A stretch of 64,000 nt of DNA. It comes from Flavobacteriales bacterium. Lineage in GTDB: Bacteria > Bacteroidota > Bacteroidia > Palsa-965. A program made the position numbers and the translations under genes. The DNA lies in NCBI GenBank assembly GCA_040377305.1, contig JBEIPA010000017.1, positions 49,561 through 113,560 on the forward strand, read 5' to 3'. The notes beneath the pieces were generated by a model that was given only the letters and a program-made list of their open reading frames with translations, did no database searches and had not been told where the DNA came from. Position 1 is the stretch's first letter. Each line of letters starts with the position of its first letter. Shown here piece after piece: positions 9,501-64,000 of the stretch.

Positions 9501-12500
9501 CCGTACACATATGCATGGACGCCATCCGGTGGAACAGGAACTACAACAACTCCTCGTCCTGCCGGCAACTACACAGTTACCGTTACCGATGCAAACGGAT
9601 GTACCGTGCAACAAACAGTTGCAATCACACAACCACCGGCAATTACACTCACTCCAACTCAGACAAACGTTTTATGTAACGGTGGCTTAACAGGAAGTGC
9701 ATCAGTTGTTGCATCAGGTGGTACTGGTACATTTACTTATGCATGGGCTCCGTCTGGCGGAACAGGTGCAACAGCAACAGGACTTGGTGCTGGTACTTAT
9801 ACAGTAACAGTTTCTTCTCCGGCGGGATGTACTGCAACTCAAACTTACACGATCACTGCTCCTCCTGCATTGACATCAACCGGAACACAAACAAACATTT
9901 TGTGTAACGCTGCATGTACAGGTGCTGCTTCAGTAACAGTTACAGGAGGTGTTGGACCATATACTTATCTATGGGCTCCTTCTGGTGGTACTGCTGCCGG
10001 AACAACAGGTCGTTGTGTTGGTACTTACACAGTAACATTCACGGATGCAAACGGATGTACAGGAACTCGTTCATTCACTATTACACAGCCAACCGCGCTT
10101 GCTGCAACAACATCATTTACTCAGGCAACTTGTAACATGTCGAATGGTTCGGCATCCGTTTCGGTTTCTGGTGGTGTTGGTCCTTATACATATCTGTGGG
10201 CTCCGCTCGGCGGAACAACAGCGACGGTGACTGGTCGTCCTGCAGGTACATATACAGTAACTTATACTGATGCTAACGGATGTACAGGTACTGCTACAGT
10301 AACTATTCCAAATGCTGCTGCTCCAACTGCAACAATCACTGCAACAGTTAACGTGACATGTTTCGGTGCTTCAACAGGCGGTGCTACAGTAGCTGCTTCA
10401 GGTGGAACTGGTCCATACACTTACGCATGGACTCCGTCAGGTGGAACCGGTTCATCAACAACCGGTCGTCCTGCAGGCACATATACTGTAACAGTTACAG
10501 ATGCGAACGGATGTACTGTGCAAGCAACAGTAACAATAACACAACCACCAGCCATCACCCTCACTCCTACTCAGACAAACGTTCTGTGTAATGGTGGCTT
10601 AACAGGAAGTGCTTCCGTTGTTGCATCAGGTGGAACTGGTACATATACTTATGCATGGGCTCCGTCAGGCGGAACAGGTGCAACAGCAACAGGACTTGGT
10701 GCAGGAACTTACACGGTGACTGTTTCTTCACCTGCCGGCTGCACTGCAACGCAAATATTCAACATCACTGCTCCTCCTGTATTGACGACTACGGGTGCAC
10801 AAACGAACGTGTTGTGTAATGGTGGAACAACAGGATCTGCAACAGTTACTCCTTCAGGAGGAGTTGGACCATACACGTATTCATGGGCTCCTACAGGTGG
10901 AACTGCAGCCATTGCGACAGGATTAACAGCACAGACTTACACGGTAACAGTTACTGATGCAAACGGATGTACTGCTACGCGAACGTTCACTATCACACAA
11001 CCACCTGCACTTACTTCCACAACATCATTCACGCAGGCTACCTGTAACATGTCTAACGGTTCGGCATCCGTTGCAGTTTCCGGTGGTGTAGGTCCTTACA
11101 CATATTCATGGGCTCCTACAGGTGGAACCGGCGCAACCGCATCAGGTCAACCTTCAGGAATATACACGGTAACATTCACAGATGCGAACGGATGTACAGG
11201 TACGGCAACAGTGAACATTCCGAATGCTGCTGCACCTTCTGCAACAATCACTGCAACTACTCCAGTTGTATGTTTCGGTGGTAACACAGGTTCCGCGACG
11301 GTTGCTGCATCTGGTGGTACCGGCCCTTATACGTATGCCTGGGCTCCAATCGGTGGAACAGGAACAACAGGAACCAACCTCACTGCTCAGACTTACACCG
11401 TCACAGTTACTGATGTCAACGGATGTACAGCAACAGCAACTACAACGATCACGCAACCAACAGCTGTTACTGCAACTGCTGCTTCTTCACCAGTTCTTTG
11501 TAATGGTGGATCAACCGGAAGTGCAACTGTTACACCTGCTGGTGGAATTGGCCCTTACACGTATGCGTGGGCGCCAAGTGGCGGTACTGCTGCAACTGCA
11601 ACAGGATTGAACGCAACTACATATACTGTTACTGTTACAGATGCGAATGGTTGTACAACCACGGCGATGACAACCGTAACTCAACCTACCGCTGTAACTG
11701 CAACTGCTGCTTCATCACCTGTCCTTTGTAACGGTGGTACAACAGGATCTGCAACCGTAACTCCTGTTGGCGGAACAGGTCCATACACCTTTGCGTGGGC
11801 TCCTACTGGTGGAACCGCTGCGATTGCGACAGGATTAAATGCGAATACATATACGGTAACGGTTACCGATGCTAACGGTTGTACAATCACAGCAATTACA
11901 ACCGTTACTCAACCACCGGCACTTTCTGCTACTACATCATTCACGCAAGCTACATGCGGAGCCTCTAACGGTTCAGCATCGGTTGCTGTTACTGGTGGTG
12001 TTGGTCCTTATACGTATGCATGGGCACCTGCGGGTGGAACAGGCGCAACTGCAACCGGACTTGCAGCGAATACTTACACAGTAACTTTCACAGATGCGAA
12101 CGGATGTACAGGAACTGCTTCTGTAACTGTTCCAAACGCTGCTTCACCATCAGCAACAATCACTGCAACAACAAACGTTTCCTGCTTCGGTGGTAACAAC
12201 GGTTCTGCAACTGTAGCTGCATCGGGTGGTACAGGACCTTACACTTATGCATGGACACCAATCGGTGGTACAGGTACTGTAGGAACTAATCTCACTGCGC
12301 AGATTTACACCGTAACAGTAACTGATGCTAACGGATGTTCCACTACAGCCACTGCAACAATCACTGAACCTCCGCTGTTAACAGCTACTGCTACTTCATC
12401 TCCGGTATTATGTTTTGGTGGAACAACAGGCAGCGCAACAGTAACTGCTTCAGGTGGTGTTGCTCCTTATACCTATGCGTGGTCGCCAACCGGCGGCACT

Positions 12501-15500
12501 GCAACAACTGCTACCGGTCTTAACGCAACGACCTACACGGTAACAGTTACGGATGCGAACGGTTGTACAACAACTGCAATGACCACCGTAACTGAACCAA
12601 CTGCTGTTACTGCAACTGCAGTCATGACTCCGGTTCTCTGTAATGGTGGGAACACAGGTACTGCAACTGCAACTCCAGGTGGTGGCGTCGGACCATATAC
12701 GTATTCATGGTCACCATCCGGTCAAACAACAGCAACCGCAACGAACCTCACCGCACAATCTTATACCGTAACTGTAACTGATGCTAACGGATGTACTGTT
12801 ACAGCATCGGTAACTGTAACTGAACCGCCTGCACTTGCTGCAACCACTTCGTTCACGCAAGCTACGTGCGGTGCAACGAACGGTTCTGCTTCTGTTAACG
12901 TAACAGGCGGTGTCGGTCCTTACACCTATTCATGGTCACCATCCGGTGGAACCGGATCAACTGCAACAGGACTTGGTGCTAACGTTTACACAGTGACATT
13001 TACTGATGCGAATGGTTGCACAGGAACCGCAACAGTAAACGTTCCGAACGCTGCTGCACCTTCTATCACTATAACAGGTACAACTGCGGTAACATGCTTC
13101 GGCGGAAACGATGGCACTGCAAGTACTTCTGCATCGGGAGGAACAGCTCCATACACATACTCTTGGGCGCTCACCGGTGGTACTGGTGCAACCGGAATAG
13201 GAATGATCGCAGGTAACTACACCGTAACTGTTACTGATGCGAACGGATGTACTGCAACAGCAACTACAACAATCACCGAACCTACTCAGGTAACAGCGAC
13301 GTCATCAACTACGGATGTGATCTGTAACGGCAATGCAACAGGAACTGCAACAGCAGTTGGTGCAGGCGGTATCGCTCCTTACACTTACCTCTGGTCATCA
13401 GGTGGAACGAATGCACTTGAAACCGGATTGCTCGCAGGCTCATACACATGCACAGTTACTGATGCTAACGGTTGTACAACAACTACAATTGCAACTGTAG
13501 TTGAACCAACACAGGTTACTTCGACAATCTCCGGAGTAGACATCCTTTGCAACGGTGGCAATAACGGTTCTGCAACAGTAATTCCGGCTGGTGGTATCGG
13601 ACCATATACCTATTTGTGGACACCAACTGCACAGACAACTGCAACTGCATCAACACTTACAGCAGGTACATATTCATGCGATATTACAGATGCGAACGGT
13701 TGTTCAATCACAGTGACCATCACGCTGACTGAACCAGCTGCACTTACAGCTACAACTTCATTCACCCAGGCTACGTGCGGAGCGGCGAACGGTTCTGCAG
13801 TTGTAACTGTGAATGGTGGTATATCACCTTACACCTACCTATGGTCTTCTGGCGGAACAGCCGCTCTCGAGACGGGACTCGCTGCCAATACTTACACTGT
13901 AACATTCACAGACGCGAACGGATGTTCAGATACTGCACAGGTCACTGTACCTAATGCTGCTTCACCAGTAATTACCGTAACAGGTACTACCCCGGTAACA
14001 TGTTTTGGCGGCAACGACGGAACGGCTTCCACTAACACAACAGGCGGAACTGCTCCTTACACGTATGCATGGGCGCTTACTGGTGGTACTGGTGCAACCG
14101 GAACAGGAATGGTCGCTGGTAACTACACAGTGACTGTTACTGATGCAAACGGATGTACTTCCACCGCTACTACAACAATCACGGAACCAACTTTGGTGAC
14201 AGCGACTTCAACCACAACAGATGTAATCTGTAATGGTAATGCAACCGGAACTGCAACTGCAGTTGGCGCGGGTGGTATTGCTCCTTACACTTACCTCTGG
14301 TCATCAGGTGGAACGAATGCACTTGAAACCGGATTGCTCGCAGGTTCTTACACGTGCACGGTTACAGATGCGAACGGTTGTACAACAACTACAATTGCAA
14401 CTGTAGTTGAACCAACACAGGTTACTTCAACAATCTCCGGAGTAGACATCTTGTGTAACGGTGGCAACAACGGTTCTGCAACAGTAGTTCCTGCTGGTGG
14501 TATCGGTCCATATACATACTTGTGGACACCAACTGCACAGACAACTGCAACTGCAACAACTCTGCTTGCTGGTACATACTCATGCGATATTACAGATGCG
14601 AACGGATGTTCAATCACAGTAACCATCACATTGACTGAACCTGCTGCACTTACTGCAACAACTTCGTTCACGCAGGCGACCTGCAGTCAGGCGAATGGTT
14701 CTGCTGATGTAACCGTATCAGGTGGTATCGGACCATATACTTATTCATGGTCATCCGGAGGAACTGCCGCACTCGAAACCGGTCTCGCTGCGAATACGTA
14801 CACCGTAACATTCACAGACGCGAACGGATGCTCAGATACAGCCCAGGTAACAGTTCCTAACGCTGCTTCTCCTGCAATCGTTGTTTCAGGTACAACAGCC
14901 GTAACCTGCTTCGGTGGTGCCGACGGAACTGCAACAACGGTTACAACAGGCGGTACTGCTCCATACACGTATGCATGGGCACTCACTGGCGGAACAGGTT
15001 CAGTTGGTACGGGAATGATCGCAGGTAACTACACAGTAACAGTTACTGATGCAAACGGATGTACTGCAACTGCAACAACAACCATCACAGAGCCAACTTT
15101 AGTAACTGCAACCTCATCTACCACAGATGTAATCTGTAATGGTGATGCAACCGGAACAGCAACAGCAGTTGGTGCTGGTGGTATCGCTCCTTACACTTAC
15201 CTCTGGTCATCAGGCGGAACGAACGCACTGGAAACAGGATTGGCTGCAGGTTCTTACACGTGTACAGTAACTGATGCGAACGGATGTACAACTACAACTT
15301 CTGTAACTGTTGTCGAGCCTACACAGGTTACTTCAACAATCTCCGGAGTTGACATTCTTTGCTTCGGTGGTAACAACGGCTCCGCAACAGTAACTCCTGC
15401 GGGAGGTATAGGACCATACACGTACTTGTGGTCACCATCTGCTCAAACAACTGCAACAGCAACTACGTTGACCGCACAGACTTACTCTTGTGATATCACA

Positions 15501-41240: not shown

Positions 41241-41921
41241 ATGTTTGACAACAACGAATTCCGCAAATACGCAACAAAACATGCTGGCATCAACAGCATG
41301 GTTTACGATCAGTATACTTCAATGTATGGTGTTCGCAACATGACCCCACAGATTGTGGAAGATCGCCCTGTACAGGGAACAGTGATGTCGGTGTTTGACC
41401 GACTCATGATTGATCGTATTATTTTCCTGGGAACTGGAATCAACGATCAGATCGCGAACATCGTTCAGGCTCAGTTATTGTTTCTTGAATCTGCTGACTC
41501 GAAAAAAGACATTCAGATTTATGTAAACTCTCCGGGCGGATCTGTTTACGCAGGTCTTGGAATCTATGACACCATGCAGTTGATTCAGCCCGACGTTGCA
41601 ACGATCTGCACAGGAATGGCCGCTTCAATGGGTGCAGTTCTTCAGTGCGCAGGTACAAAAGGAAAACGCACAGCGCTTCCGCATGCACGCGTAATGATTC
41701 ACCAGCCACTTGGTGGTGCAGAAGGTCAGGCTTCAGATATCGAAATCACAGCACGTGAAATTCAGAAGCTGAAGAAGGAACTTTACGAGATTATCGCAAA
41801 TCACTCCGGACAAACCTTTGACAAAGTGTGGGCAGATAGCGATCGTGACTACTGGATGACCGCTGCAGAAGCGAAAGAATACGGCATGATTGACGAAATT
41901 TTGGAGCGTCGCATTAAATAA
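41241..41921 (+). CDS. clpP: ATP-dependent Clp protease proteolytic subunit
   Basis: DRIIFLG, NSPGGSV, AASMGA, MIHQP, DRDYWM. Confidence 0.98.
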   Translation: MFDNNEFRKYATKHAGINSMVYDQYTSMYGVRNMTPQIVEDRPVQGTVMSVFDRLMIDRIIFLGTGINDQIANIVQAQLLFLESADSKKDIQIYVNSPGGSVYAGLGIYDTMQLIQPDVATICTGMAASMGAVLQCAGTKGKRTALPHARVMIHQPLGGAEGQASDIEITAREIQKLKKELYEIIANHSGQTFDKVWADSDRDYWMTAAEAKEYGMIDEILERRIK

Positions 41922-45538: not shown

Positions 45539-46612
45539 TTATTCTACGAATAATTTTTTCTGAATGGATTCTTCAACCGATTGGTAGATGTTCTTTTGAA
45601 TAACGGTCATACGAATCATCATTTCCATAGCCGTGATGTGGTAAAAATTGTCTTTAACCCACTGGTCTTTATATTCAGGTGTATCGCCAATCGGAATTGC
45701 GAATTTAATATCCGGATGCAGCTTAATGTTACGATATACTGCAAGATAGCCGTATAGAATAATGCCCTTCCCATTTGGTACTGCAGGATTTTCACCAACC
45801 ATCATTAAGGTTGAAACATCAACATCATTCGGATTATCTACCCGATAAGCCTTCTCAGTACCGTCGCAGTAGTAATTGTCATTGAGCCTCGACAAGAATC
45901 CACATTTCAATTCTTCGATGTTCGAAACAACCTCCAACGCATCGGTAAAATATTCTGTCGCTGCAGAATCAATGTCGTGGTTCATTGAATCTGAATGAAA
46001 CTCAACTATCATACTATCCACACGATTTTTCAGTATTACATAATCAGAAAGTTCTTGCGTGAAGATTCCGGACTTGTCTTCTATCTCGCTTGTCTTTTCC
46101 TTTGCTGACCAACAACCCACACCCAGTGAAGCAACCACCAACAATGCAAGCACAGAGAAATTCGAAATACTTCTTGTTTTAACGTCAGGTTTTCGAAAGT
46201 TTGCGAGGAAAATGATCAGGAATACAACTTGCCCCGCTGCACCGACGTAAATCATATTCATTTCACCGGGCCAACGCTGAACACAGAATAACAAACCAAC
46301 CTGCAAGACAGCAAAACTAAATCCGCAAAGTTTTATTGCAAACTGCATCGCCTTCTCTGTTTCCACTTTACTAAGAGAAAACAGATACAGAGGCATCGCA
46401 GCAACAGAAAAAAGCGTTGTGAACAGAACCAACAGAATTCCTCCACCAGGCAAGCTATTCAGTTTGAGAACTGCGCCAGCTAAGGAGAATACCGCACAAA
46501 TAGTTCCGAGAATGTAGGCCGCTTTACGCACGATTTCAGAGTGAAATTTACCCTCAAATTTACCACCCTTCCGAATGGAGAAATCGTAGGTTTCAGAGGG
46601 CTTTTCAGCCAT
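45539..46612 (-). CDS. Membrane protein with GldL-like TM hairpins and a GldM N-terminal-like periplasmic domain
   Basis: [12 protein letters not shown] and [10 protein letters not shown] resemble the GldL GA.FK..HWPG motif. MMVGENP..P.GKG and W...NFYH......MT.IQKNI resemble the GldM helical domain. Confidence 0.6.
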
Positions 46613-46656
46613 TTATTAACCGAAAACAGCGCGAATTATCAATGAAAATCAGGCTT

Positions 46657-48687
46657 TTACTTCGTGCCGTTCACTTTGACCGTGAAGTAACCAGGAAGTA
46701 CCGTACGTGGCTCACCAAAAGGAGTGTCACTGCTGGTGCTATACTGCTTGTGCGCAAAAGTCAACGCATTCACGTGCTTGTACATCTGTCCTGAATGCGG
46801 ATTGTAGTACCAGTCTTCATCAAATCTGATTTCGTTGAAGAGATAATACTCTCTGCCTTTATCGGGATGAGTGTTCGATGCTGCTGCGCATGAATCAATC
46901 AGGTGCTGAAATGTTGCCACTGACAATGGTTGCGGATTTGCGCTTGTCGACCACGCTTTAATTTTTCCTGCGCGAATATTATCAATCACCTGCTGCACCA
47001 TTTGGTAACGCGCTTCGTTCTCAATCTGCTCTTCGTACGTTGCGCCATAACTTACAATGGGCTGACCACTGTTTCCTTCTTCAGGATAATATTCACAATA
47101 ATTGAGCAAGCATGGGGTAATCACATTTTTCGCAATGAGATACTTCGGCTGAAAAACAGAATCGATTGGATTGTTCGGATTATCGTAACGCGTCCACGGT
47201 TGAGCGGCTCTGAATTCCTGCCATGCGTTCATTACATACATCAGAACTCCGATTGTCTTTATGTCTTTCTCAAAACGCATCGTTGAAGGATCAAACTTCC
47301 AACGCTCCGAAAAACCAAAACCGCAGTAATACTCATGACCAAGATCCGTTGCGACAGGAGCCTCAACATAATCGCCATGTGTTGGATCTTCAACCATTAC
47401 AATTTGCGTGTCGACATACAGATCGAAAATCTCCGCAGCTGTCAAAGGCACACGACGTTTGTCGAGCGGATCATTGTATTCCCACGCCACTTCCCTGTTG
47501 TAGGAAGGAACTTTGCCATCACGCATCAGCATTCCTGCATGGACTGCAAGTTTGCTCAATGCAATGGAATCCTTTTGCAGAAACGTCGGGTAATTTCCGT
47601 CCGGCAGATTATAAAATGCGGTATTCGAATAATAATTCTCAATCGTTACTGCTCCATTCGCGGTGAATCCCGGAACAGAGCCATTCAGTGGCATATACGT
47701 CGACCATGAAAACAAATTGCCCCACACGATTCCATTCGCATCCGGTGGTTTTGGTCCGAGATTCTTTCCGAAGTAAACTCCCTTCACTGTTTTCGAGAAT
47801 GTCATTTGTGTAAGATCGGCCGACCATGTTTCACGGAAACGAAGTGTATTCGCCTGCAGGTTTTCATTACCCGCTGCGGTTCTCTTCTTTTTGTCTTTGA
47901 TCAATGCAAAAGGTGAAATGGGCTCAAACAACGAATGCGTTACGTTCTGACTTTCGGAAGCAAGTGAACCCAACAATTTATTCCGCATATCTGCAACATC
48001 GGGTGAACTATACGAACTTCTGTATACGAATTTGTTCTCATCCCCGTAATCCAGCAGTTGCATGCTGTCTGCAACAAAATTGTAACTGATGTTTGCAGAA
48101 AAATCCTTTTGCTTCACCTCACCGTTTGTGAATGGAATATATCCGAGTGGCAGAAGTCGCACACTATAAGTTTCTCCGTTCATGAAGTAACCATAATCAA
48201 GAATCGGTATAATTCCTTTCACTTTTTTGTCCAGGGTGAGTGTGGCCGGATCATAAAACCATTCTTCGTGAAACAGAACAGCTATAACGTGTTCGGGTCT
48301 TTTCAATTCCATGACCTGAAGTGTAAGGAGGTCCATCGTCACCGGATCTTCCACTTCAATTTCCAGTGGAATTGAGATTGCAGCGATTGCATCATCCTGA
48401 CTCAACTTTTCGGAGAAAGGATAAGTTGGTGCGTAAACATCAATTTCCTTATTCCTGATTTTTTCAAACAACACACCAAAGAGTGAATCATTTGCCATCG
48501 GAGTGATGTAATCTCCGGTCCAGTCCTTCTGCAGTTCTTCCGGTCCGATTTGCTTTCTCAGTTGCACTGCATAAACCACTTCGCCCAGTGAAACCGGTGC
48601 TGGAAAGTTCGCAACGTCTGTAGATATTTCGAACGATTGCAAAGCGAAAGTGGCGACCAGAATCGCCGGAACAAGAAGCTTTCTCAT
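46657..48687 (-). CDS. Exported protein with four GldN-like motifs
   Basis: Signal peptide. HEEWFYDP....DKKVKGIIP and three related copies resemble GldN E.W.FD......I.GI.P. Confidence 0.6.
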   Translation of the reverse strand: MRKLLVPAILVATFALQSFEISTDVANFPAPVSLGEVVYAVQLRKQIGPEELQKDWTGDYITPMANDSLFGVLFEKIRNKEIDVYAPTYPFSEKLSQDDAIAAISIPLEIEVEDPVTMDLLTLQVMELKRPEHVIAVLFHEEWFYDPATLTLDKKVKGIIPILDYGYFMNGETYSVRLLPLGYIPFTNGEVKQKDFSANISYNFVADSMQLLDYGDENKFVYRSSYSSPDVADMRNKLLGSLASESQNVTHSLFEPISPFALIKDKKKRTAAGNENLQANTLRFRETWSADLTQMTFSKTVKGVYFGKNLGPKPPDANGIVWGNLFSWSTYMPLNGSVPGFTANGAVTIENYYSNTAFYNLPDGNYPTFLQKDSIALSKLAVHAGMLMRDGKVPSYNREVAWEYNDPLDKRRVPLTAAEIFDLYVDTQIVMVEDPTHGDYVEAPVATDLGHEYYCGFGFSERWKFDPSTMRFEKDIKTIGVLMYVMNAWQEFRAAQPWTRYDNPNNPIDSVFQPKYLIAKNVITPCLLNYCEYYPEEGNSGQPIVSYGATYEEQIENEARYQMVQQVIDNIRAGKIKAWSTSANPQPLSVATFQHLIDSCAAASNTHPDKGREYYLFNEIRFDEDWYYNPHSGQMYKHVNALTFAHKQYSTSSDTPFGEPRTVLPGYFTVKVNGTK

Positions 48688-54260: not shown

Positions 54261-54740
54261 TTAATTCCTCAGCCAGCTGATTACTTCCGGCTCTCCGTTT
54301 TCAGTACGACGAACAATTTTCATCCACTCAAGCAGCGGCAGTCCAATATATTTTCTGTTGGTGAAATTTTCAATCAGCCATGCTGAATCACCTTTGTAAC
54401 CATCCGGATGAAACACAAATTCCAGCGGAACACCGGCGTACTCTGCAGCAAAGAACGACCAAACTAAAACGCCCATCTCATATCCTTCCGCTTCAATTCC
54501 TCCCCCGGTTGCATCTCCATTCATATTCTGCCGCTCTGACGGAAGCATAAGCGCAATGTGTCCTGCTTCGTGCAACAGATCTCCCGGGAATTTCATCTTA
54601 CCGGGCTCTACAATCAAGCGCCCTTCGCTGATAGTGATTCCCGGAACAAATGTTTGGCCGTCAATAGCACGCTCTTCGATTTCAATTCCGATAGAACGGA
54701 TGAACGCATAGCAGCGGTCAATTACTTCCTCACGCTTCAT
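54261..54740 (-). CDS. Hypothetical protein with a zincin-like HExxH motif
   Basis: PGDLLHEAGHIA and a downstream Glu (GYEM). 11-bp overlap with the upstream gene. Confidence 0.7.
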   Translation of the reverse strand: MKREEVIDRCYAFIRSIGIEIEERAIDGQTFVPGITISEGRLIVEPGKMKFPGDLLHEAGHIALMLPSERQNMNGDATGGGIEAEGYEMGVLVWSFFAAEYAGVPLEFVFHPDGYKGDSAWLIENFTNRKYIGLPLLEWMKIVRRTENGEPEVISWLRN

Positions 54741-55710
54741 GCGGCTTAAGTTCGTTGTGTGTAATCACCTCTTTCAGTTTTCTGAACATTTCTTCCGACT
54801 TCACGAAGTCTCCCCATCCCGATGGTCCATGCATATCACCACTGAAATTTTTTTCCGGATTCTTCGAATGAAATCCCACACGATTCTGCATGGCAGTAAT
54901 GATCTGTTCATCTGGAAAATAGCCGCACGTGCTGAACACCTTCTCCGTTATCTTCATTGCTCCGTCATGGTAACTTAATGCAACGCTTACTTTGTTCGAT
55001 TTCAATATTTCCACATAGGCACTGAAATAACAACCGAGCACATGGTCAAGATAACTGCCTCTTGTCATATTCATTGCTTCTTCTGCTTCAAGCTGAAACA
55101 ACGAAGGTTCGATTACGCCCGGCACAGAATGCATGGCCGGATGCTTCGCCTGCGAAGCGCCTACTTCTTTTGGTGAACGGTACATCAGGAAGGAAGGAAC
55201 AGCGGGATACCACGCATTCAGCTGTCTGTAATAAAGGACGTGCCAGCTATCCGTCTTAACGAATACACGTTGCTCTGCATTTCGTCGCCGGCTCAGCAAT
55301 TTTACCACCGCCTTATATTGCTGTTCCCTTGCAAAATCGTTCTGCAACGAATCAGTCGTACGGAGTATTGCATCGAGCAAAGGAACTTCCGACAGAACGA
55401 TGTTGCAGGGGTCGCACGACAACAATTGCGCAACCAGCGTGGAACCACAACGCGAGATATGATAAATAAATGCTGTGTGCGAAACGCTGTCGGCTTGTTC
55501 TGCAATGCGCACCAACGTTTCTGCTGAAGTCACAGGAAATTTTCCAGGAACATTCTGCGGTAGGGACAGGCATGACGCAATCGACTCTTCAAAGAATGGT
55601 TCTGTGAAGGAATGATTGCCTACATATAGCCATCTGAAATTCACATCGCCATTGTTGTCGGCTAAGAGTTTGTATGGAACCCATCCGTTCAGAAGTTCCA
55701 GGTCATCCAT
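54730..55710 (-). CDS. Sulfotransferase-fold (P-loop) protein
   Basis: 5'-PSB-like FIYHISRCGSTL, LSE.P, and 3'-PB-like YRSPKEVGAS. Confidence 0.75.
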   Translation of the reverse strand: MDDLELLNGWVPYKLLADNNGDVNFRWLYVGNHSFTEPFFEESIASCLSLPQNVPGKFPVTSAETLVRIAEQADSVSHTAFIYHISRCGSTLVAQLLSCDPCNIVLSEVPLLDAILRTTDSLQNDFAREQQYKAVVKLLSRRRNAEQRVFVKTDSWHVLYYRQLNAWYPAVPSFLMYRSPKEVGASQAKHPAMHSVPGVIEPSLFQLEAEEAMNMTRGSYLDHVLGCYFSAYVEILKSNKVSVALSYHDGAMKITEKVFSTCGYFPDEQIITAMQNRVGFHSKNPEKNFSGDMHGPSGWGDFVKSEEMFRKLKEVITHNELKPHEA

Positions 55711-56404
55711 TGATCTGCTTTTTGAGGTCAGCGATTATTACTTTCGAAGTATCGGTATTGATCCGTTCCAGTTCTGCAATCATTGCCAAGACTGTTGCTT
55801 CATCGGGAGCAAGCACCTTTCGTTCACATTCAAAATCATAACCCGCTTCTGCGAAAAGTTGGTCCGACCACTCGTTTCTCACACAATCAATGACCAGGTG
55901 GACACGAGGAAGTTCTCCTCTATTTTTCACACTGTGCGGCAGATCGAAATTGGCGTACCAACACTCACCGGCCCGCATGTTCATTCGTTGATTATCCACT
56001 ACAAAATCAACATCCTCACTTGTCTGCAGGGGAATATGAAGACGGAATGCACCCCGTTCATAACACAATCCACGGTCGCGGTGCTCATGAATAATACTGC
56101 CCGGAGCTAACCGTAACAAACGGACAGCCTCCTTATCACATTTCAGCTCACTGAGAATCTTAAGGATATAAGGACAACTTTCAAGTAAGGGCGTCGGCAA
56201 GAATGCCCCTCCCTCTGTGCGTGTATCATCCGCATTTCCGGAAAGTGAATACAGCGCTATACTGGTCCAGTCTCCGGAATAATCTTGCGTATTAACATGC
56301 CTGCTCCAGTCGGACCTTATACAGGTGAGCATATCGGCGGATAATAAATCACCTTCGAAAGTCAAAGGCAGTTTCAGAGAGTGACAGGCTGTTGTTAGAC
56401 GCAT
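55703..56404 (-). CDS. Aspartyl/asparaginyl beta-hydroxylase family Fe(II)/2OG dioxygenase
   Basis: VRLLRLAPGS.IHEHRD (HxD), RLHIP, GECWY.NF..PHSV.N.G...RVHLVID. Confidence 0.9.
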   Translation of the reverse strand: MRLTTACHSLKLPLTFEGDLLSADMLTCIRSDWSRHVNTQDYSGDWTSIALYSLSGNADDTRTEGGAFLPTPLLESCPYILKILSELKCDKEAVRLLRLAPGSIIHEHRDRGLCYERGAFRLHIPLQTSEDVDFVVDNQRMNMRAGECWYANFDLPHSVKNRGELPRVHLVIDCVRNEWSDQLFAEAGYDFECERKVLAPDEATVLAMIAELERINTDTSKVIIADLKKQING

Positions 56405-56417
56405 GAAATAGTATAAT

Positions 56418-56530
56418 GCAATATAGAATTCATTTCCCGGTGGTTTAGGATTTCAAATTAATACAACAATTAATTTACACATTTAAATTATCAATAAGAT
56501 CTTAATATTACATCGCATTTCCTATATTGC
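56418..56530. promoter_or_regulatory. Divergent promoter region with identical variant -7 boxes CTATATTGC on both strands
   Basis: gcaatatag at 56418-56426 (minus) and ctatattgc at 56522-56530 (plus), separated by AT-rich DNA. Confidence 0.5.
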
Positions 56531-56583
56531 TGCCAATTCGCTAACCAAATCATTCATTTACTCACTAAACCCATTCAACTTTT

Positions 56584-57126
56584 ATGGAAGGAACATTGGC
56601 TGTCATAACTCCTGTAGCTTATGACTTTACACCCCGTTACTGGCAACAGTGCAGCGGGCAGATTCTATCAATTGCACAGAATCAGGCGTTGTTTTCACTA
56701 CTCGGTACAACCTATGGTGGAAACGGAATTCAGACTTTTGGTTTACCAGATTTACGCGGTCGTGTGGCAACCGGTATTGGTCAAGGTCCGGGACTCCAGT
56801 ATTACACACTGGGTGAAGTAACCGGCACTGAAAACGTCACACTCACGATGAACAACCTGCCGCCGCACACACACAATGGTGTTGTGCAGATGACTCCACT
56901 TGGTGGAAATTCAGGCGATAGTGCTACGCCGGTTGGTGGTTATCCAGGTCCGATTCCAAATGGTTATACCACGACTCTTGCTGGTTCATCGCCGATGGGT
57001 TCTTCGTCGTTCGCGAATACGAACATCGGTCAGGCTGGAAGTAATTTTCCGGTTTCTGTTCTGACCCCATATCTGACCTTGAATTTCGTGATTTGTGTAC
57101 AGGGCATTTTTCCTTCACGAAACTAG
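56584..57126 (+). CDS. Phage tail collar domain protein (MdpB/microcystin-dependent family), paralog 1
   Basis: C.GQ.LSI.QNQALFSLLGTTYGGNG..TFGLPDLRGR, LPPHTH, C-terminal GIFPSRN. Confidence 0.92.
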   Translation: MEGTLAVITPVAYDFTPRYWQQCSGQILSIAQNQALFSLLGTTYGGNGIQTFGLPDLRGRVATGIGQGPGLQYYTLGEVTGTENVTLTMNNLPPHTHNGVVQMTPLGGNSGDSATPVGGYPGPIPNGYTTTLAGSSPMGSSSFANTNIGQAGSNFPVSVLTPYLTLNFVICVQGIFPSRN

Positions 57127-57182
57127 TCGCAGTACGCAACCGAACTTTTCAAACATTAACTGAATTCAAAAACCTATAACAT

Positions 57183-57734
57183 ATGTTCGTAGAACCATAT
57201 TTGGCCACAGTTACAAACTTCGCAGGAAATTTCGCTCCACGGAGCTGGATGTTCTGTCAGGGCCAGTTACTATCAATTGCAGAATACACAGCACTTTTCG
57301 CACTCATCGGTACTACCTATGGCGGCGATGGGCAGACAACATTTGCATTGCCTGATATGCGCAGCCGTGTCGCAGTTAGCATGGGGCAAGGCCCGGGACT
57401 TTCCAACTACATGCTGGGACAAGCAGCAGGCACTGAAAACGTCACTATCCTTTCTTCTCAAATGCCCGGACACAACCACGTGGTAACTACTTTCACTGGT
57501 GCATTTCAGGCTTCTACCAGCACAACCGGACTTGTAGGTGTACCTAATAATGCCATTCCTGCAGCAGGTGCAACTGCCTATTCCAACGCACCGGATGGAA
57601 ACACTTTTGGCCCGATGAACCTGAATTCAATTACACCAATGGCCGGAGGCAATCAGCCCATTTCCATAATTCAACCTTATCTAGGTATGAATTTTATCAT
57701 CGCGGTGGAAGGTATTTTTCCATCACGTAACTAA
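57183..57734 (+). CDS. Phage tail collar domain protein, paralog 2
   Basis: FAGNFAPRSW.FC.GQ, GTTYGGDG..TFALPD.R, MPGHNH, GIFPSRN. Confidence 0.92.
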   Translation: MFVEPYLATVTNFAGNFAPRSWMFCQGQLLSIAEYTALFALIGTTYGGDGQTTFALPDMRSRVAVSMGQGPGLSNYMLGQAAGTENVTILSSQMPGHNHVVTTFTGAFQASTSTTGLVGVPNNAIPAAGATAYSNAPDGNTFGPMNLNSITPMAGGNQPISIIQPYLGMNFIIAVEGIFPSRN

Positions 57735-57768
57735 CTTATTTAAGAACACTTAAACAACTTATAATACT

Positions 57769-58314
57769 ATGGAAGGTGTAATTGGTTATACAACAATCTT
57801 CGCCGGCAATTTCGCTCCCAAGTCATGGGCGTTTTGTGCAGGGCAAATAATTAACATCGCATCAAACACTGCATTGTTCTCTATTCTGGGAACAACATAT
57901 GGTGGAAACGGAACTACAACTTTTGCGCTTCCCGATTTACGCGGACGTACAATTGTTGGAGCAGGAGCAGGCCCCGGTCTTTCTTCTTATAATATTGGTC
58001 AGGTGGGTGGCACAGAATCTACTGCCCTTACCACGCTCACTATGCCGGCACACGTTCACCCGGTAACTGCTCAGTTGAATATTTCTGCAACTGACAACTC
58101 CGCTACGCTGACTAATCCGATTGGCAACGTATACGGACAGGAACCTTCGACCAATCCGATCTATGGTGCTGACGGAAATGTAAGCATGGCAAAAATCGAT
58201 GCCAGCCTTACAATGACGAGCACCGGAGCCGGGGCTTCATTTGAAATTCTCCGCCCACTGCTCGGATTGAATTACATTATTTGTCAGTACGGAGTATTTC
58301 CGGCACGCAATTAA
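57769..58314 (+). CDS. Phage tail collar domain protein, paralog 3
   Basis: FAGNFAPKSWAFC.GQ, GTTYGGNG..TFALPDLRGR, MPAHVH, GVFPARN. Confidence 0.92.
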   Translation: MEGVIGYTTIFAGNFAPKSWAFCAGQIINIASNTALFSILGTTYGGNGTTTFALPDLRGRTIVGAGAGPGLSSYNIGQVGGTESTALTTLTMPAHVHPVTAQLNISATDNSATLTNPIGNVYGQEPSTNPIYGADGNVSMAKIDASLTMTSTGAGASFEILRPLLGLNYIICQYGVFPARN

Positions 58315-58332
58315 TATTATTTCATTATAGAG

Positions 58333-58360
58333 AAAAGGGGAACAGTGCTGTTCCCTTTTT
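58333..58360 (+). terminator. Intrinsic terminator/attenuator after the tail-collar triplet
   Basis: GGGAACA-GTGC-TGTTCCC stem with a T tract. Confidence 0.75.
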
Positions 58361-58396
58361 CTTTGTTTTTTTGCAATCTCTTCACCCGCTTAATTT

Positions 58397-59521
58397 ATGC
58401 CGCATAAAATTGGATTTCTCATGCCCCGCTCCGGCGAATTTCCGTCGATGAGTTTTGATTTGAACGATGGCTTTCGTCTTGGTCTGGCGCAAGCTGGTAT
58501 AACTGACGTAGAAATTATCACAGACAGTATCGGATTTGGAGAAGACACTCAGTTAAACCATTCCAGGGCCGAGAAGCTGGTCATGAACGACAACGTTGAT
58601 CTTATTGTGGCGTATGCAACATCGCTCAATGCGGAAGCCTTGTACGATTTTGCAAAGACAGCAGGCAAACCAATCCTGTTTCTGGATGCTGGAATGGAAT
58701 TGTTCGAATTGCCTCCTTCGCCTAATTGCTATCACATCACACTTCAGGGCATGCATGCAAGCCGCTTAACAGGAAGAGATGCAGGATCGGGCGGAAGAAA
58801 TATTATTAGTGCCACGAGTTTCTATGATGGAGGGTATCGCGCACCGTGGGCAATCGCTCAGGGAATTGAAGAAGGTAAAGGTAGAACTTGCGGAAATTAC
58901 GTTAGTGTTTTCAAACCGGAAGAGTTTTCCGTAGATCAATTGATTCACGTGATTGAAAACACCGAAGCACAAGGCATCACGGTCTGTTTCAGCATGTACC
59001 TCGTTGAATTATTCATGAAGGGACTGAAAGAAAAAAATCCTGTCTCTACTTCCTTGCCGTTTTACTGTTCCCCTTTTACTGCTGAAGAACAGTGGCTGGA
59101 GAAATGCGATTTCCCCGGAGGAACATTCCACGCTATCGTTCCGTGGTCAATCCTGCTGGAGAATCCTGCTCAACAGGCAATGAAAGATTCTCTTTTGAAG
59201 AACAAAAACAAAACGGCCAACCTGTTCAGTCTACTCGGATGGGAAGCTGCGCAGGTAGTTGATCAGATCATCAAGGGTGGGACATCCTCTCTGGACAACT
59301 GGTCGTTCGAAAGTCCAAGAGGTGTTGTATGTTTCCATCCCGATTCGCACTGTACATATGCCCCGCTGTATAATGCTTTTATAGAAGGCAATGAAAACGG
59401 CAAATGCAAACTTCGTATAACGAACCCGATCAATATCAATCCGGAAGAACACCTTACCGTTTTCAGGTCACGCCCGGAAGGAGACTATACCCGCTGGCGC
59501 AATAATTATTTCTGCATCTAA
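58397..59521 (+). CDS. Type 1 periplasmic-binding-fold (LivJ-like) protein without a signal peptide
   Basis: KIGFLMPRSG at the very N-terminus, AEKLV..D.VDLIV, GWEAA, FESPRG...F. Confidence 0.75.
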   Translation: MPHKIGFLMPRSGEFPSMSFDLNDGFRLGLAQAGITDVEIITDSIGFGEDTQLNHSRAEKLVMNDNVDLIVAYATSLNAEALYDFAKTAGKPILFLDAGMELFELPPSPNCYHITLQGMHASRLTGRDAGSGGRNIISATSFYDGGYRAPWAIAQGIEEGKGRTCGNYVSVFKPEEFSVDQLIHVIENTEAQGITVCFSMYLVELFMKGLKEKNPVSTSLPFYCSPFTAEEQWLEKCDFPGGTFHAIVPWSILLENPAQQAMKDSLLKNKNKTANLFSLLGWEAAQVVDQIIKGGTSSLDNWSFESPRGVVCFHPDSHCTYAPLYNAFIEGNENGKCKLRITNPININPEEHLTVFRSRPEGDYTRWRNNYFCI

Positions 59522-59524
59522 GCT

Positions 59525-60451
59525 ATGCGTATCGCTATACTTTGTAACGACCGCATCGGTTTCCCTGCAATCCATCAGTTACTGCCTCATCGTTTAATCG
59601 TAGCAGCAGGAACTTCCGATCGTTTACCGGAAACCACAATGGCTCTTCAGCAATTATGCGGAATGGCTGCAATTCCCTTGCAGGTATTTTCCAAAGCAAA
59701 TTTCGCAACGGAAATACGTTCGTGGCTTCAGCAACACCAACCCGATGTAGTTCTGGTAAAAACTTTTCCATACAAAATTCCGGCTGATGCATTGAACGTA
59801 CCGAAGTTTGGCTTCATTAACTTTCATTATGCACCCTTGCCTGCATTCCGCGGATCAAATCCTCTATTCTGGATGATTCGAAATGGCATTACGGAAGGTG
59901 GTGTAACCCTCCACAAGATGGATGAAACGTTCGACACCGGTGAAATCTTAATCAGGCAGCAGGTAATTCTGCAACCCGATACCAGTTTCGGAATGGCAGT
60001 CAGTCAACTTGCGTTTACCGGTGCCACACTAACGGGTCCGCTGCTACAGGGATTATTGAACAGTTCTCTGACTCCAATGGATCAAGATTCTTCTCTGGCA
60101 AAATGGTATGGCCGTCCTAAGCCTGAAGATCTTTTCATCCGTTGGAATACAATGACGGCAACTGAAATACGTAATCTGGTGAATGCATGTAATCCATGGA
60201 ACAGAGGTGCTGTTGTCCGGTTCCGCGGATGGACTTTCGCGATTACTGATTCTTCTGTTTCTGATAATACAGTTGCTGATGGAACGGCTCCAGGCACCAT
60301 CATTTCTATGGATGAAAATATTGGAGTCATTGTTTCGTGTAAAGGATCGGAAGCAATCCGGATCAATGCAATCTATACGGAAGAGGGTTATTTCTCTGCT
60401 TTTCGACTCAAAACTTTCGGAATTCAGGTTGGCGAAAAACTGGATGCTTGA
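59525..60451 (+). CDS. Formyltransferase (Fmt/ArnA-like paralog)
   Basis: INFHYAPLPAFRGSNP, GVTLH.M...FDTG.I, and a C-terminal I.W..M.A..I.NLV.A.NPW domain. Confidence 0.88.
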   Translation: MRIAILCNDRIGFPAIHQLLPHRLIVAAGTSDRLPETTMALQQLCGMAAIPLQVFSKANFATEIRSWLQQHQPDVVLVKTFPYKIPADALNVPKFGFINFHYAPLPAFRGSNPLFWMIRNGITEGGVTLHKMDETFDTGEILIRQQVILQPDTSFGMAVSQLAFTGATLTGPLLQGLLNSSLTPMDQDSSLAKWYGRPKPEDLFIRWNTMTATEIRNLVNACNPWNRGAVVRFRGWTFAITDSSVSDNTVADGTAPGTIISMDENIGVIVSCKGSEAIRINAIYTEEGYFSAFRLKTFGIQVGEKLDA

Positions 60452-60613
60452 TTTCTGCTTAATTAGCGGCATTTACAAGAATTAACGGCTGCTGATAAAA
60501 CCAGCATCTTTCCCTGATTTATTTAGATATTATTGCTTGAGAACACCTCAGGAAGTGTTATTTTCGGGTCGCTAACACAAAACCAATAACTCCGCTTATC
60601 TCAACTTTTTCCT

Positions 60614-63600
60614 ATGAAAAGAATGTCTGCTTACAACCCAATGAATTGTTTTCGTGCAATTACACTTTTGACATTGTTCCTTTTTTCTGCGGCTTCGTTA
60701 CGCGCACAAACCTGGACATTTGAAGGTGCCGGTGGCTCTGCAAATGCGGAGAACGGTAAAGCAGTATGCGCTGATGCATCAGGAAACGTATACGTCACCG
60801 GGTCCTTCTCGAATACCGTCGATTTTGATTTGGGCGGAGGCACTGCCAACCTCACCTCGAATGGCAATAACGATATTTTCATTGCCAGTTATACAGCGGC
60901 CGGAGCATACAGATGGGCGGTGCGTGCTGGTGGAGCTGCTCTAGATAATGGTTCTCCTGCAGGCGGAATCTGTACAGACGGCACAAACGTTTACGTTACG
61001 GGATCATACAACGGTGCTGCAACAATGTTTGGTGCAACAAGCCTTACGCCAAACGGAGGAGGTGGAACGGATGCTTATGTTGCAAAACTGAATGCTGCCA
61101 ACGGTGCGTGGATATGGGCCGTTAGTCTCGGTGGACCGGGTAACGTAGATAATGGTGTAGCCATGTGCCTCGACCCTTTGGGCAATCCTTATTTATTAGG
61201 AAGCTTCAACGGAACCATGAGTGGTGCTTGTGCGAACGTTTCCGCTGGGGGAACTGATATTTTTGTAACCAAACTCAATCCGGCTACAGGTGCATGTGTA
61301 TGGATGGCCAATGGTGGTTCAACCGGCAATGATGGAACCGCCGGGGGTGGTATCTGTTATGATCCGATAACAACAGAACTTATTGTAGCCAGCAACTTCA
61401 CGACAAGTGCCGGCAATTTTGGCGCATTCTCGGTTCCTTTTGTGGGTGGTATTGAAATGTGTGTTCTGGAATTAAATTCCACGACAGGTGCATGGATGGG
61501 TGCTGTAGGAACCGGATCGGTCACCAACGATGATGCAGTTGCTTGTGCGCTGGATCCGAGTACAGGTAATGTGATGGTGGTTGGAGCCTATACGGGTAAC
61601 ATGACTTTGCCGGGTGGAATCCCGCTTACTGCATCGTTCGCAGGAGCCCAGGATGCATGGATAGGAAGTTATTCAATTGCTTCCAATACATTCTTATGGG
61701 CAAAAACGGCTGCCGGAGTATCAAACGATCGCGCTAACGGAGTAGCGGTAGATGGCGTCGGGTCTGTATTGATGACAGGTCAGTACATCAGTAGCCCAAC
61801 GACATTTGGTGCTTTGGCCTTGACAAACACCAATAGTTCCGGCTTCGACGATATGTTTGTGGTTTGTTATTCTGCAGGAACGGGAATAGAACGTTGGGCT
61901 ACAAAAAATACGAATTCAGGTGTTCAGCCTTCTGCAAATAATGGCAGAGGAATCGCTTATGCAGGTAGTAATAATTTTTGGATCACGGGGCAACACGCCC
62001 AAGGTTGCACATTCGGGGCACTAGGTCCACTGAACTCCAATGGCTTCAACGATTTTTATGTTGCCAAGCTTAATGCACCACCTCCCCTCACCGCTACTCA
62101 ATCACAAGTCAACCTTACTTGTAACGGTGTGTGCACAGGAAGTGCTACAGTTGTTGCGAGTGGTGGACAGGCGCCCTACACGTACAGTTGGTCACCATCA
62201 GGTGGATCAGGTGCTACAGCATCGTCGTTGTGCTCAACAAATTACACGGTAACAATCACAGACGCTGCTGCAACTTCAATCACAAGAACTTTCAATATCA
62301 CACAGCCACCTGCTATTGTTGTCACACCTATCTCGCAGACCAACGTTTCCTGCTTCGGCGGATCAAATGGAGCAGCACAGGTAACGGCTTCAGGAGGCAC
62401 AGGCTCTTTGACCTACAACTGGACACCGGGCAATCCTTCTGGTGATGGAACAGGTAGTGTTACAGGGTTAACCGCCTCGGTTTACACCATCACTGTTACA
62501 GATCAAAACTTCTGCACCGCTACAAGAACTTTCAATATTACTGCACCACCCGCACTGTCTGTCACTCCGAATTCACAAACGAACGTTTCCTGCTTCGGCG
62601 GATCAAATGGCGCTGCATCCATCAATTTACCAACTGGTGGTGCAGGTGGCTATACTTACAATTGGACACCTGGAAATCCAACTGGTGACGGAACAATATC
62701 TGTGACAGGATTAACTGCACAGGTCTACACCGTTACAGTAACTGATGCTAACACGTGTACTAGATCTTTTACATTCAATGTTACAGCACCGCCTGCACTT
62801 TCAGTTACACCAAATACACAAACAAACGTTTCCTGCTTCGGCGGATCAAATGGCGCTGCATCCATCAACACACCAACAGGTGGAGCAGGTGGATACAGCT
62901 ATAACTGGACACCGGGCAATCCTACAGGTGATGGAACAACATCGGTGACAGGATTAAGCGCACAAGGATATACAGTAACTGTAACTGATGCGAACTCTTG
63001 TACTGCATCTTTTGCTTTCAACGTTACTGCACCTCCTGCACTTTCAGTCACGCCGAATTCACAAACAAACGTTTCCTGTTTCGGCGGATCAAATGGCGCT
63101 GCATCCATCAACACACCAACTGGTGGTGCAGGTGGATATAGTTACAACTGGACACCGGGAAATCCAACAGGTGACGGGACAACAAGTGTTACAGGGTTGA
63201 CTGCTCAGGTCTATACTGTGACAGTAACAGATGCAAACTCATGTATTGCAACACAAACGTTCAACCTCACTGCTCCTACTGCACTTGTTGTAACTCCTGC
63301 TTCACAAACAAATGTTTCCTGTTTCGGCGGATCGAATGGAGCTGCATCCATCAACACACCAACTGGTGGTGCAGGTGGATATAGCTACAACTGGACACCG
63401 GGAAATCCAACAGGTGACGGAACTATATCTGTGACAGGATTAACTGCACAGGTGTACACCGTTACTGTAACGGATGCAAACTCATGCGTTGCAAATGCTA
63501 CGTTCAACGTTACTCAACCTACTTCTCCGGTGAGCGGAACAACTGTTGTCACTAACGTTGCTTGCTTCGGTGGATCAACTGGTGCAATTAACTTAACACC

Positions 63601-64000
63601 AACTGGTGGATTCGGTCCATATACTTTCAATTGGTTGCCTTCTGGACCAACTACTGAAGATCGCACTGGTCTTGTGCAGGGAACTTACTCTGTACAAATC
63701 ACAGATGTAAATGGATGCGTTGGAACAGTGACCGCCAGTGTGACTCAACCAACATCACCTGTAAGCGGAACAACTGTTGTAACAAACGTTGCTTGCTTCG
63801 GCGGCAATACTGGCGCAATCAATCTTACACCAACTGGCGGAACAGGTCCGTACACGTTCAACTGGTTGCCAAGCGGACCAACAACAGAAGATCGCACTGG
63901 TCTTGTGCAGGGAACTTACTCTGTACAAATCACAGATGTAAATGGATGCGTTGGAACTGTTACTGCTACAGTTACACAACCAACTTCACCAGTATCAGGA
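60614..64000 (+). CDS. Giant secreted adhesin, 3'-partial: signal peptide, seven-blade SBBP-like beta-propeller, SprB repeats (absent from the ORF track)
   Basis: Hand translation from the ATG at 60614 gives MKRMSAYNPMNCFRAITLLTLFLFSAASLRAQ, seven D..GN.Y.TG-type blades to ~62075, then QTNVSCFGGSNG...TVTDAN.C repeats. The frame is consistent to the window end; no stop was seen in the stretches translated. Confidence 0.9.
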   Translation, partial: MKRMSAYNPMNCFRAITLLTLFLFSAASLRAQTWTFEGAGGSANAENGKAVCADASGNVYVTGSFSNTVDFDLGGGTANLTSNGNNDIFIASYTAAGAYRWAVRAGGAALDNGSPAGGICTDGTNVYVTGSYNGAATMFGATSLTPNGGGGTDAYVAKLNAANGAWIWAVSLGGPGNVDNGVAMCLDPLGNPYLLGSFNGTMSGACANVSAGGTDIFVTKLNPATGACVWMANGGSTGNDGTAGGGICYDPITTELIVASNFTTSAGNFGAFSVPFVGGIEMCVLELNSTTGAWMGAVGTGSVTNDDAVACALDPSTGNVMVVGAYTGNMTLPGGIPLTASFAGAQDAWIGSYSIASNTFLWAKTAAGVSNDRANGVAVDGVGSVLMTGQYISSPTTFGALALTNTNSSGFDDMFVVCYSAGTGIERWATKNTNSGVQPSANNGRGIAYAGSNNFWITGQHAQGCTFGALGPLNSNGFNDFYVAKLNAPPPLTATQSQVNLTCNGVCTGSATVVASGGQAPYTYSWSPSGGSGATASSLCSTNYTVTITDAAATSITRTFNITQPPAIVVTPISQTNVSCFGGSNGAAQVTASGGTGSLTYNWTPGNPSGDGTGSVTGLTASVYTITVTDQNFCTATRTFNITAPPALSVTPNSQTNVSCFGGSNGAASINLPTGGAGGYTYNWTPGNPTGDGTISVTGLTAQVYTVTVTDANTCTRSFTFNVTAPPALSVTPNTQTNVSCFGGSNGAASINTPTGGAGGYSYNWTPGNPTGDGTTSVTGLSAQGYTVTVTDANSCTASFAFNVTAPPALSVTPNSQTNVSCFGGSNGAASINTPTGGAGGYSYNWTPGNPTGDGTTSVTGLTAQVYTVTVTDANSCIATQTFNLTAPTALVVTPASQTNVSCFGGSNGAASINTPTGGAGGYSYNWTPGNPTGDGTISVTGLTAQVYTVTVTDANSCVANATFNVTQPTSPVSGTTVVTNVACFGGSTGAINLTPTGGFGPYTFNWLPSGPTTEDRTGLVQGTYSVQITDVNGCVGTVTASVTQPTSPVSGTTVVTNVACFGGNTGAINLTPTGGTGPYTFNWLPSGPTTEDRTGLVQGTYSVQITDVNGCVGTVTATVTQPTSPVSG
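62335..64000 (+). repeat. Tandem 231-243 bp coding repeats
   Basis: AA(C/T)GTT(T/G)C.TG.TTCGG anchors at 62342, 62582, 62825, 63068, 63311, 63554 and 63785. Confidence 0.85.

Follow-up and report, generated by a model that had tools for sequence, protein, structure and literature searches.

Layout of the cassette

We analysed a stretch of 64,000 nucleotides from a Flavobacteriales bacterium (GCA_040377305.1, contig JBEIPA010000017.1, positions 49,561 to 113,560 of the forward strand), hereafter the window. Its right-hand end, from position 54261 to 64000, carries a cassette of nine genes centred on three consecutive tail-collar (PF07484) genes. The cassette is conserved and is not part of a phage, and we tentatively read it as encoding a chemically tailored binding knob. 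All nine open reading frames (ORFs) are intact and lie where a preliminary description of this DNA had placed them; the ORF list and Pfam likewise agree with its account of an overlapping leftward operon diverging from a rightward unit. The leftward unit encodes a PF05118 oxygenase (AspH), a predicted sulfotransferase of 326 residues and a 159-residue HExxH protein. The AspH gene (56404-55703) overlaps the sulfotransferase start (55710) by 8 nt, and the sulfotransferase end (54730) overlaps the start of the HExxH gene (54740) by 11 nt. In the rightward unit the three PF07484 genes come first, followed by genes for a Peripla_BP_6 protein lacking a signal peptide, an Fmt-like protein and a protein with SprB repeats. 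The features are as follows.

54261..54740, minus strand: HExxH protein, 159 aa; predicted zincin-like fold with H57-E58-x-x-H61 and E88
54730..55710, minus strand: predicted sulfotransferase dependent on 3'-phosphoadenosine-5'-phosphosulfate (PAPS), 326 aa; invariant H-x-SRCGST, R178/S186; called from the fold
55703..56404, minus strand: Fe/2-oxoglutarate (2OG) oxygenase of the Asp/Asn beta-hydroxylase family (AspH), 233 aa; PF05118; H108-D110-H157 and R167 conserved
56584..57126, plus strand: collar protein 1 (PF07484), 180 aa; HxH; C-terminal GIFPSRN; no lysine; no signal peptide
57183..57734, plus strand: collar protein 2 (PF07484), 183 aa; collar part matches T4 gp12 (1ocy, E 1.4e-4)
57769..58314, plus strand: collar protein 3 (PF07484), 181 aa; Pfam collar match
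58327..58366, plus strand: intrinsic-terminator-like hairpin, 18 pairs and a T run, 3' of the collar triplet
58397..59521, plus strand: signal-less protein of periplasmic-binding-protein fold, 374 aa; a family of its own; C-terminal W-x-N-x-[YF]-x-C
59525..60451, plus strand: Fmt-like formyltransferase, 308 aa; keeps the catalytic N99/H101/D137 and scores under the fmt equivalog cut-off
60614..64000, plus strand: giant adhesin-like protein, more than 1129 aa; Sec-type leader and SBBP-like propeller, with SprB repeats; truncated where the contig stops

The contig stops at position 64000, so that the adhesin C-terminus cannot be read. The GC content of the cassette is 0.45-0.48, against 0.451 for the host. 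The genome is 99.99% complete and its only collar genes are these three. The adhesin has a hydrophobic N-terminal leader; the enzymes, the collars and the binding protein have none. A terminator-like hairpin follows the last collar gene in 14 of 89 cases and never lies between collar genes (0/101), and a hairpin at this position would be expected to raise collar expression above that of the downstream genes. A scan for sigma-70 promoters remained at chance level (9 vs 10.5).

Collar proteins and their conserved neighbours

Pfam assigned all three paralogues to PF07484, as previously proposed, with E values of 9.5e-24 to 5.5e-27 (83.6-93.9 bits against a cut-off of 24). The three are mutually 42-46% identical. 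Across the family a framework comprising the collar, the HxH motif (191 of 195 collars) and the C-terminal G[IV][FY]P[SA]RN is invariant and surrounds a variable middle of about 50 residues. Lysine is absent from 57 of the 195 collars, leaving the N-terminus as their only amine.

Conservation was assessed in two sets of loci. The sulfotransferase loci were the best 80 of 582 confirmed in GTDB genomes. The collar-first loci were 40 picked from a phylum sample (20 tandem arrays and 20 singles), of which 38 gave collar ORFs and two (L045, L054) had none in the clustering; two further loci were duplicates (L161 of L073, L162 of L072). Of 92 collar arrays, some of them cut by locus ends, 32 were single genes, 19 pairs and 41 triplets. 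An initial rule that arrays never exceed three was dropped after a single tandem array of four (G243:C84:70241-72151) was found, the sole exception met. In a tree of 90 of the 195 collars (the triplets from sulfotransferase loci and the window), each window paralogue fell inside a starred clade of nine genes occupying the same position. Triplets in other families appear to have arisen separately. One locus (L092) carries two arrays, of two and three collars, each with its own binding-protein gene.

A precedent for such a trio comes from the DSLV2 virophage. There, three PF07484 proteins co-purify 1:1:1, form 16-nm fibres and bind Synechococcus cells, with lipopolysaccharide proposed as the receptor (PMC12724248). 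The window collars resemble them in being encoded by three consecutive small genes, in combining a collar with a variable head and in falling into position-specific groups. They differ in that DSLV2 is viral with predicted docking on a capsid, whereas the genes described here are chromosomal, capsid-free and accompanied by tailoring enzymes, a binding protein and an adhesin. Likeness to the T4 gp12 and gp37 tips extends to the collar domain and the HxH motif, and gp40 of Microbacterium phage Jefe (189 aa) is similar over its whole length (about 40%) to a window collar. These, however, are single-copy genes set amid phage tail genes, with no modifying enzymes, and the T4 fibres are homotrimers.

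Most collars, including those of the window, are leaderless. Some homologues from other Bacteroidota classes, at motif level, carry their own twin-arginine (Tat) or Sec-type leaders (L033, L037, L039, L051, L069; L055, L059, L061), and at L033 and L037 the triplet is mixed, with one leaderless member. At the same level of scrutiny, a gene with a Tat leader lies within 6 kb at 33 of the 52 collar-bearing sulfotransferase loci. TatC is encoded in the present genome. A candidate carrier acting in trans, the homologue on contig C34 (32%) of the neighbour with the Tat leader, was set aside, since it resembles an ordinary 5'-nucleotidase pair. A soil metaproteome contains COG4675 proteins, and a PF07484 protein, matched here by family, is reported from the exoproteome of Ruegeria pomeroyi (PMC4949626). 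Given the position-specific clades, the rarity of arrays beyond three, the Tat- and Sec-leadered homologues and the DSLV2 analogue, an exported heterotrimeric knob is likely. We hold it to be quite likely that the three collars form a 1:1:1 heterotrimer with an HxH metal site, and the knob is probably abundant and at work outside the cell. At a separate locus (L050:8984-10460), a pair of Sec-leader proteins bears a GIFP-type motif ahead of the collar, as though the domain were circularly permuted, and is joined to a fibre-like repeat.

At the 80 sulfotransferase loci we found AspH at 70, adenosine-5'-phosphosulfate (APS) kinase at 57, collars within 10 kb at 52, the binding protein at 41, the HExxH protein at 39, the formyltransferase at 35, a PKHD-type oxygenase at 30 and PhyH at 16. 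As a baseline, collar genes occur in 46 of 201 Bacteroidota genomes of the phylum sample, a contrast that is overstated because this sample includes smaller genomes. From the collar side the picture is different: at the 38 collar-first loci the binding protein was present at 13, the formyltransferase at 9, the HExxH protein at 4, AspH at 2 and the sulfotransferase at none. The co-occurrence of enzymes and triplet that had been anticipated is borne out from the enzyme side, and the knob can exist without AspH and the sulfotransferase. The view of the leftward operon as an integral part of the module had to be given up on these counts; by gene content it is better described as an accessory tailoring module.

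A large exported protein lies near the collars at most collar-first loci. In an unbiased 200-genome sample, all 13 non-self matches to the binding-protein family lay no farther than about 2 kb from a collar gene, and the HExxH protein was found in 9 sampled genomes, all collar-bearing, being adjacent to the collars in 4. Within the window's genus the binding protein occurs in 14 of 24 genomes (one unpublished), and 10 relatives in which the upstream region is visible have the sulfotransferase in 9, AspH in 7 and the HExxH protein in 2. On plasmids (8 loci of 48 records, spanning Deinococcota, Pseudomonadota, Bacillota and Bacteroidota), a large exported protein of immunoglobulin type, three collars and a GNAT or formyltransferase stand together at 7 of the 8 loci, and a Deinococcus locus has an annotated substrate-binding protein with the cassette. 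This recurrence across phyla defines a core of collars, an N-acyltransferase and a large exported protein, joined in Bacteroidota by the binding protein. For Acaryochloris, differential-expression tables list three collar genes alongside an acetyltransferase (PMC11633204). The linkage accordingly upholds the earlier suggestion of a non-prophage collar module associated with modification enzymes and a large T9SS-type (type IX secretion system) surface protein. Upstream of the collars at six loci from several Bacteroidota (L040, L048, L057, L058, L052, L157) lie a conserved, divergent two-component system of a HisKA_3 kinase and a LuxR regulator, and small uncharacterised genes.

Predicted tailoring enzymes and partner proteins

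The sulfotransferase gave no Pfam match from its own sequence, and a search of the Protein Data Bank with its profile returned none. Its structural model (pLDDT 91.8), however, matched sulfotransferases in all top positions, in agreement with the earlier call of a sulfotransferase fold. In VIA, the top rows were tyrosylprotein sulfotransferases (Z 14.8, 14.6 and 14.4; best root-mean-square deviation (rmsd) 3.7 over 211 aligned residues), at 11-13% identity to the window protein, with cytosolic sulfotransferases below that group (Z no higher than 10.6). By its modelled fold, the protein groups with tyrosylprotein and other macromolecule-acting enzymes, and it has the 5'-phosphosulfate-binding and 3'-phosphate-binding motifs of PAPS-dependent sulfotransferases; we therefore consider the 326-residue protein a predicted sulfotransferase. 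Host genes resembling cysC, cysD and cysN (APS kinase, ATP-sulfurylase-like) lie on contig C49. Beyond the low identity, the window protein differs from tyrosylprotein sulfotransferases in its coupling to a hydroxylase, and there is no sign of a tyrosine target: the tip tyrosine is not specific to sulfotransferase-linked loci, being about equally conserved in collars with and without a linked sulfotransferase (90% of 128, 70% of 67 and 87% of 15). This comparison does not discriminate for or against it as the sulfated residue.

AspH matched PF05118 (E 7.5e-20) and keeps the HxD...H triad of the family. AspH is fused to the sulfotransferase at 4 of the 80 loci, which suggests hydroxylation followed by sulfation of one substrate. 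The formyltransferase has both the N- and C-terminal Formyl_trans domains of Pfam and scored 127 bits against TIGR00460 (Fmt), below the cut-off of 201.5, with the N/H/D residues kept; these residues and the conserved ones of AspH are the catalytic ones. Another Fmt homologue of the genome lies on contig C55. Judged by folds and conserved residues, the activities are highly likely to be 2OG-dependent hydroxylation, PAPS-dependent O-sulfation and N-formylation. A lone homologue of the PKHD-type oxygenases was found on contig C60.

The HExxH protein has no Pfam match and belongs to a separate family of about 1000 clusters. Its fold is confidently predicted as zincin-like, with HExxH and a third ligand. 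In VIA the matches were tied, all with Z below 8 and rmsd above 4 (ArdC 5.3, BepA 5.3, YfcM 4.8 over the whole domain, CapP 4.8), and the EpmC cluster was among the Atlas rows (0.91). Foldseek with the model returned no match at E<=0.001, YfcM being absent among the matches listed. The window family shares HExxH and a distal glutamate with EpmC/YfcM, the lysine hydroxylase of elongation factor P, and with ArdC/IrrE-type zincins, and is separate from them. Of its 40 long homologues, 15 are fused to AspH, 4 to GNAT and 4 to a carbamoyltransferase, with single fusions to APS kinase, to a sulfotransferase of the window's type and to another 2OG oxygenase; one is a GNAT-HExxH-AspH fusion. These fusions link all the enzymes to a single pathway and make a plain protease role doubtful. 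The preliminary description had added that the module was possibly cleaved; the model, which ties zincin proteases with the hydroxylase EpmC/YfcM, would suit cleavage and hydroxylation alike. The protein may be a protease or a hydroxylase or adaptor, and is not clearly the first. In four proteins (P0126, P0137, P0164, P0193) the HExxH domain is fused to carbamoyltransferases of NodU/CmcH type, an alternative O-transferase partner. A second gene of the family (C50:143270-143755, 39% identical) lies apart from any collar gene.

The binding protein matched Peripla_BP_6 (E 1e-18), and its family has a conserved terminal W-x-N-x-[YF]-x-C with the cysteine penultimate; it could serve as an assembly or escort factor. 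In the adhesin, Pfam found eight SprB repeats and the N-terminus resembles an SBBP beta-propeller, at residues 32-490. A T9SS sorting domain was identified by Pfam in 13 of 29 large neighbours of collars, many others being cut by locus ends, and two proteins occupying the same slot (L165, L168) end, by eye, in a YPNP-type tail. By comparison with these same-slot proteins of relatives, the window adhesin probably bears a T9SS C-terminal domain. Its domain make-up varies from locus to locus, and the adhesin accordingly appears interchangeable. Contig C37, which opens with SprB repeats and closes with a T9SS-like tail, was considered as its continuation but could not be assigned, as the repeat type differs. 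Elsewhere in the window (1150-6348 and 6576-17960) lie two giant SprB-repeat proteins of 1732 and 3794 aa with PKD and CHU_C T9SS domains, and the genome holds many propeller paralogues.

Interpretation and alternatives

We propose that the three collar products assemble into one heterotrimeric, metal-stapled fibre-tip knob, that this knob would be chemically tailored in the cytoplasm and then exported folded, and that it would be displayed, as a binding head that can be swapped, together with the adjoining giant protein of T9SS type. To this chain as a whole, an enzyme-tailored heterotrimeric knob displayed with an interchangeable adhesin, we assign a probability of roughly 0.4. These enzymes draw on cytoplasmic cofactors, and a leader is present on the adhesin but not on the collars, which makes the collars the likeliest protein substrate. 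The logic would be that of Xanthomonas RaxST and RaxX, in which a protein is sulfated in the cytoplasm before export. That the knob is indeed the substrate, with formyl (acetyl elsewhere) on an amine such as the N-terminus, falls slightly short of an even chance; that it docks on the adhesin, for which gene linkage speaks, is an even bet.

Several observations weigh against this proposal. The adhesins beside the collars share no evident common domain that could serve as a dock, and no Tat-leader gene was found, at motif level, in the window's own clade of loci. An array of four exists and arrays of one and two are common. A polyketide sulfotransferase (Z 13.9) and Stf9 (Z 13.8) lie within 1 Z of the tyrosylprotein enzymes, and the tip tyrosine, as described, does not discriminate between linked and unlinked loci. 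No collar lies near 28 of the 80 sulfotransferase loci; collars were found elsewhere in 22 of the 27 genomes concerned and not at all in 5. To this may be added the scarcity of the sulfotransferase (0/38) and AspH (2/38) at collar-first loci, and the kinship of the loci, which makes the counts non-independent. On substrate, location and binding, finally, the proposal rests on inference.

The enzymes may instead act on a glycan, a lipid or a small molecule. It is unlikely, though to be taken seriously, that a secreted binding knob exists while the enzymes decorate such a compound, to be carried or recognised by one of three proteins: knob, binding protein or adhesin. With a sulfotransferase, an APS kinase, a carbamoyltransferase, an acyltransferase and the PKHD and PhyH oxygenases, the enzymes look like a tailoring cluster; their operon often stands apart from the collars, and the binding-protein fold suggests a small ligand. 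Nod-factor and lipid A tailoring enzymes modify glycans and lipids in a comparable manner; weak NCBIfam matches were to NoeE (E 0.038), LpxO and a non-proteinogenic amino-acid hydroxylase, and those of the formyltransferase include ArnA. However, no glycosyltransferase, non-ribosomal peptide synthetase or polyketide synthase cluster recurs at the 80 sulfotransferase loci, the sulfotransferase fold points to macromolecules, and the N-acyltransferase stays beside the collars across phyla while changing family. The trimer could also be released to act in a lectin-like way or to cross-link the matrix, sharing regulation with the adhesin without being attached to it. This would fit the terminator that parts the triplet from the downstream genes, the freely varying adhesin architecture and the metaproteome and exoproteome detections. 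We judge it quite unlikely, as the large exported protein stays adjacent across four phyla and the stand-alone homologue of phage Jefe sits in a run of minor tail proteins, that is, as a docked part. The absence of leaders from most collars and from the binding protein would also suit a collar trimer acting as a cytoplasmic scaffold or chaperone, with the enzymes modifying the adhesin before export; the collar homologues with leaders of their own, the hypervariable tip, like that of a receptor-binding head, and the Sec-type leader of the adhesin make this improbable.

The preliminary description had found no capsid, terminase, sheath, tube, baseplate or integrase genes in the window. Whole-genome searches extended this to the contig (C43) for sheath, tube, baseplate-J and the PF03237 terminase, none of which was present there; integrases were not searched for. 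Among 32 window ORFs between 18095 and 60448, the only tail matches in PHROGs were the three collars. A PHROGs match to a head maturation protease (41241-41918, between a 447-aa gene and an ATPase) probably marks the host tig-clpP-clpX region. A decayed prophage remnant might be suspected from the homologues that align over the whole length, which are minor tail proteins of phages standing on their own; of 476 phage records with a match, 279 span 80% or more of the query. With intact genes, host-like GC, gene order conserved across genus and phylum and no phage genes on the contig, this explanation is hardly credible and, by the conserved synteny, largely refuted.

No sheath, tube or baseplate-J gene of an extracellular contractile injection system (eCIS) lies on the contig of the window, but the genome does hold an eCIS-type locus on another (C5:1-20000), comprising a sheath (cut by the contig start), two tubes, a spike, a PAAR-like protein, a baseplate, a 598-aa fibre-like gene and large accessory genes; a lone third tube gene lies at C15:15125-15586. 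The collars could thus be tail-fibre tips supplied to that system in trans, and tube genes are indeed more frequent in genomes with collars (18 of 45) than in the rest of the sample (19 of 155), and occur in 11 of 17 collar genomes of the same class. Genome size and kinship may account for this enrichment. The PF06841 tube is absent from 8 of 13 other triplet genomes, including a one-contig genome (G122) with triplet, binding protein and formyltransferase, which implies that the cassette does not need an eCIS, and no injection-system gene recurs among the clusters at the collar-first or the 80 sulfotransferase loci. We regard supply in trans as very improbable. The eCIS and tailocins are likewise phage tail parts kept for the host; the cassette retains the fibre tip only, with no sheath, tube or baseplate.

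RhiB (of Rhizobium rhiABC) and Microcystis MrpB/MdpB, which belong to COG4675, are collar-family proteins of cellular origin, expressed in rhizosphere or bloom settings. To our knowledge, no triplet-enzyme-adhesin system or mechanism has been described for RhiB, MrpB or MdpB, which we set beside the window collars by description. We found no account of the cellular cassette in the open-access literature, judged by title or start of abstract; the component families are known, and the assembled system matches none found there. A wider proposal, rather unlikely in its entirety, is that bacteria of many phyla have domesticated nothing but the receptor-binding tip of a phage fibre, to serve giant adhesins of unrelated kinds as a heterotrimeric plug-in head. 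In the Bacteroidota version, specificity would be tuned by a new pathway of beta-hydroxylation leading to O-sulfation, together with N-formylation, organised by the HExxH protein, possibly an EpmC-like hydroxylase.

PF07484 genes, present in nearly a quarter of the sampled Bacteroidota genomes, lie in many cases outside phages, where the routine label of tail fiber protein hides a cellular system. If our proposal is correct, the cassette shows how giant adhesins in general can be fitted with exchangeable binding heads, and provides a pathway of protein hydroxylation, sulfation and formylation that is rare in bacteria as well as a function for the long-unexplained MdpB/RhiB family. Elsewhere in the window (45539-48687), two leftward genes of 357 and 676 aa adjoin thyA and folA; by eye, we take their products to be gliding-motility proteins like GldM and GldN.

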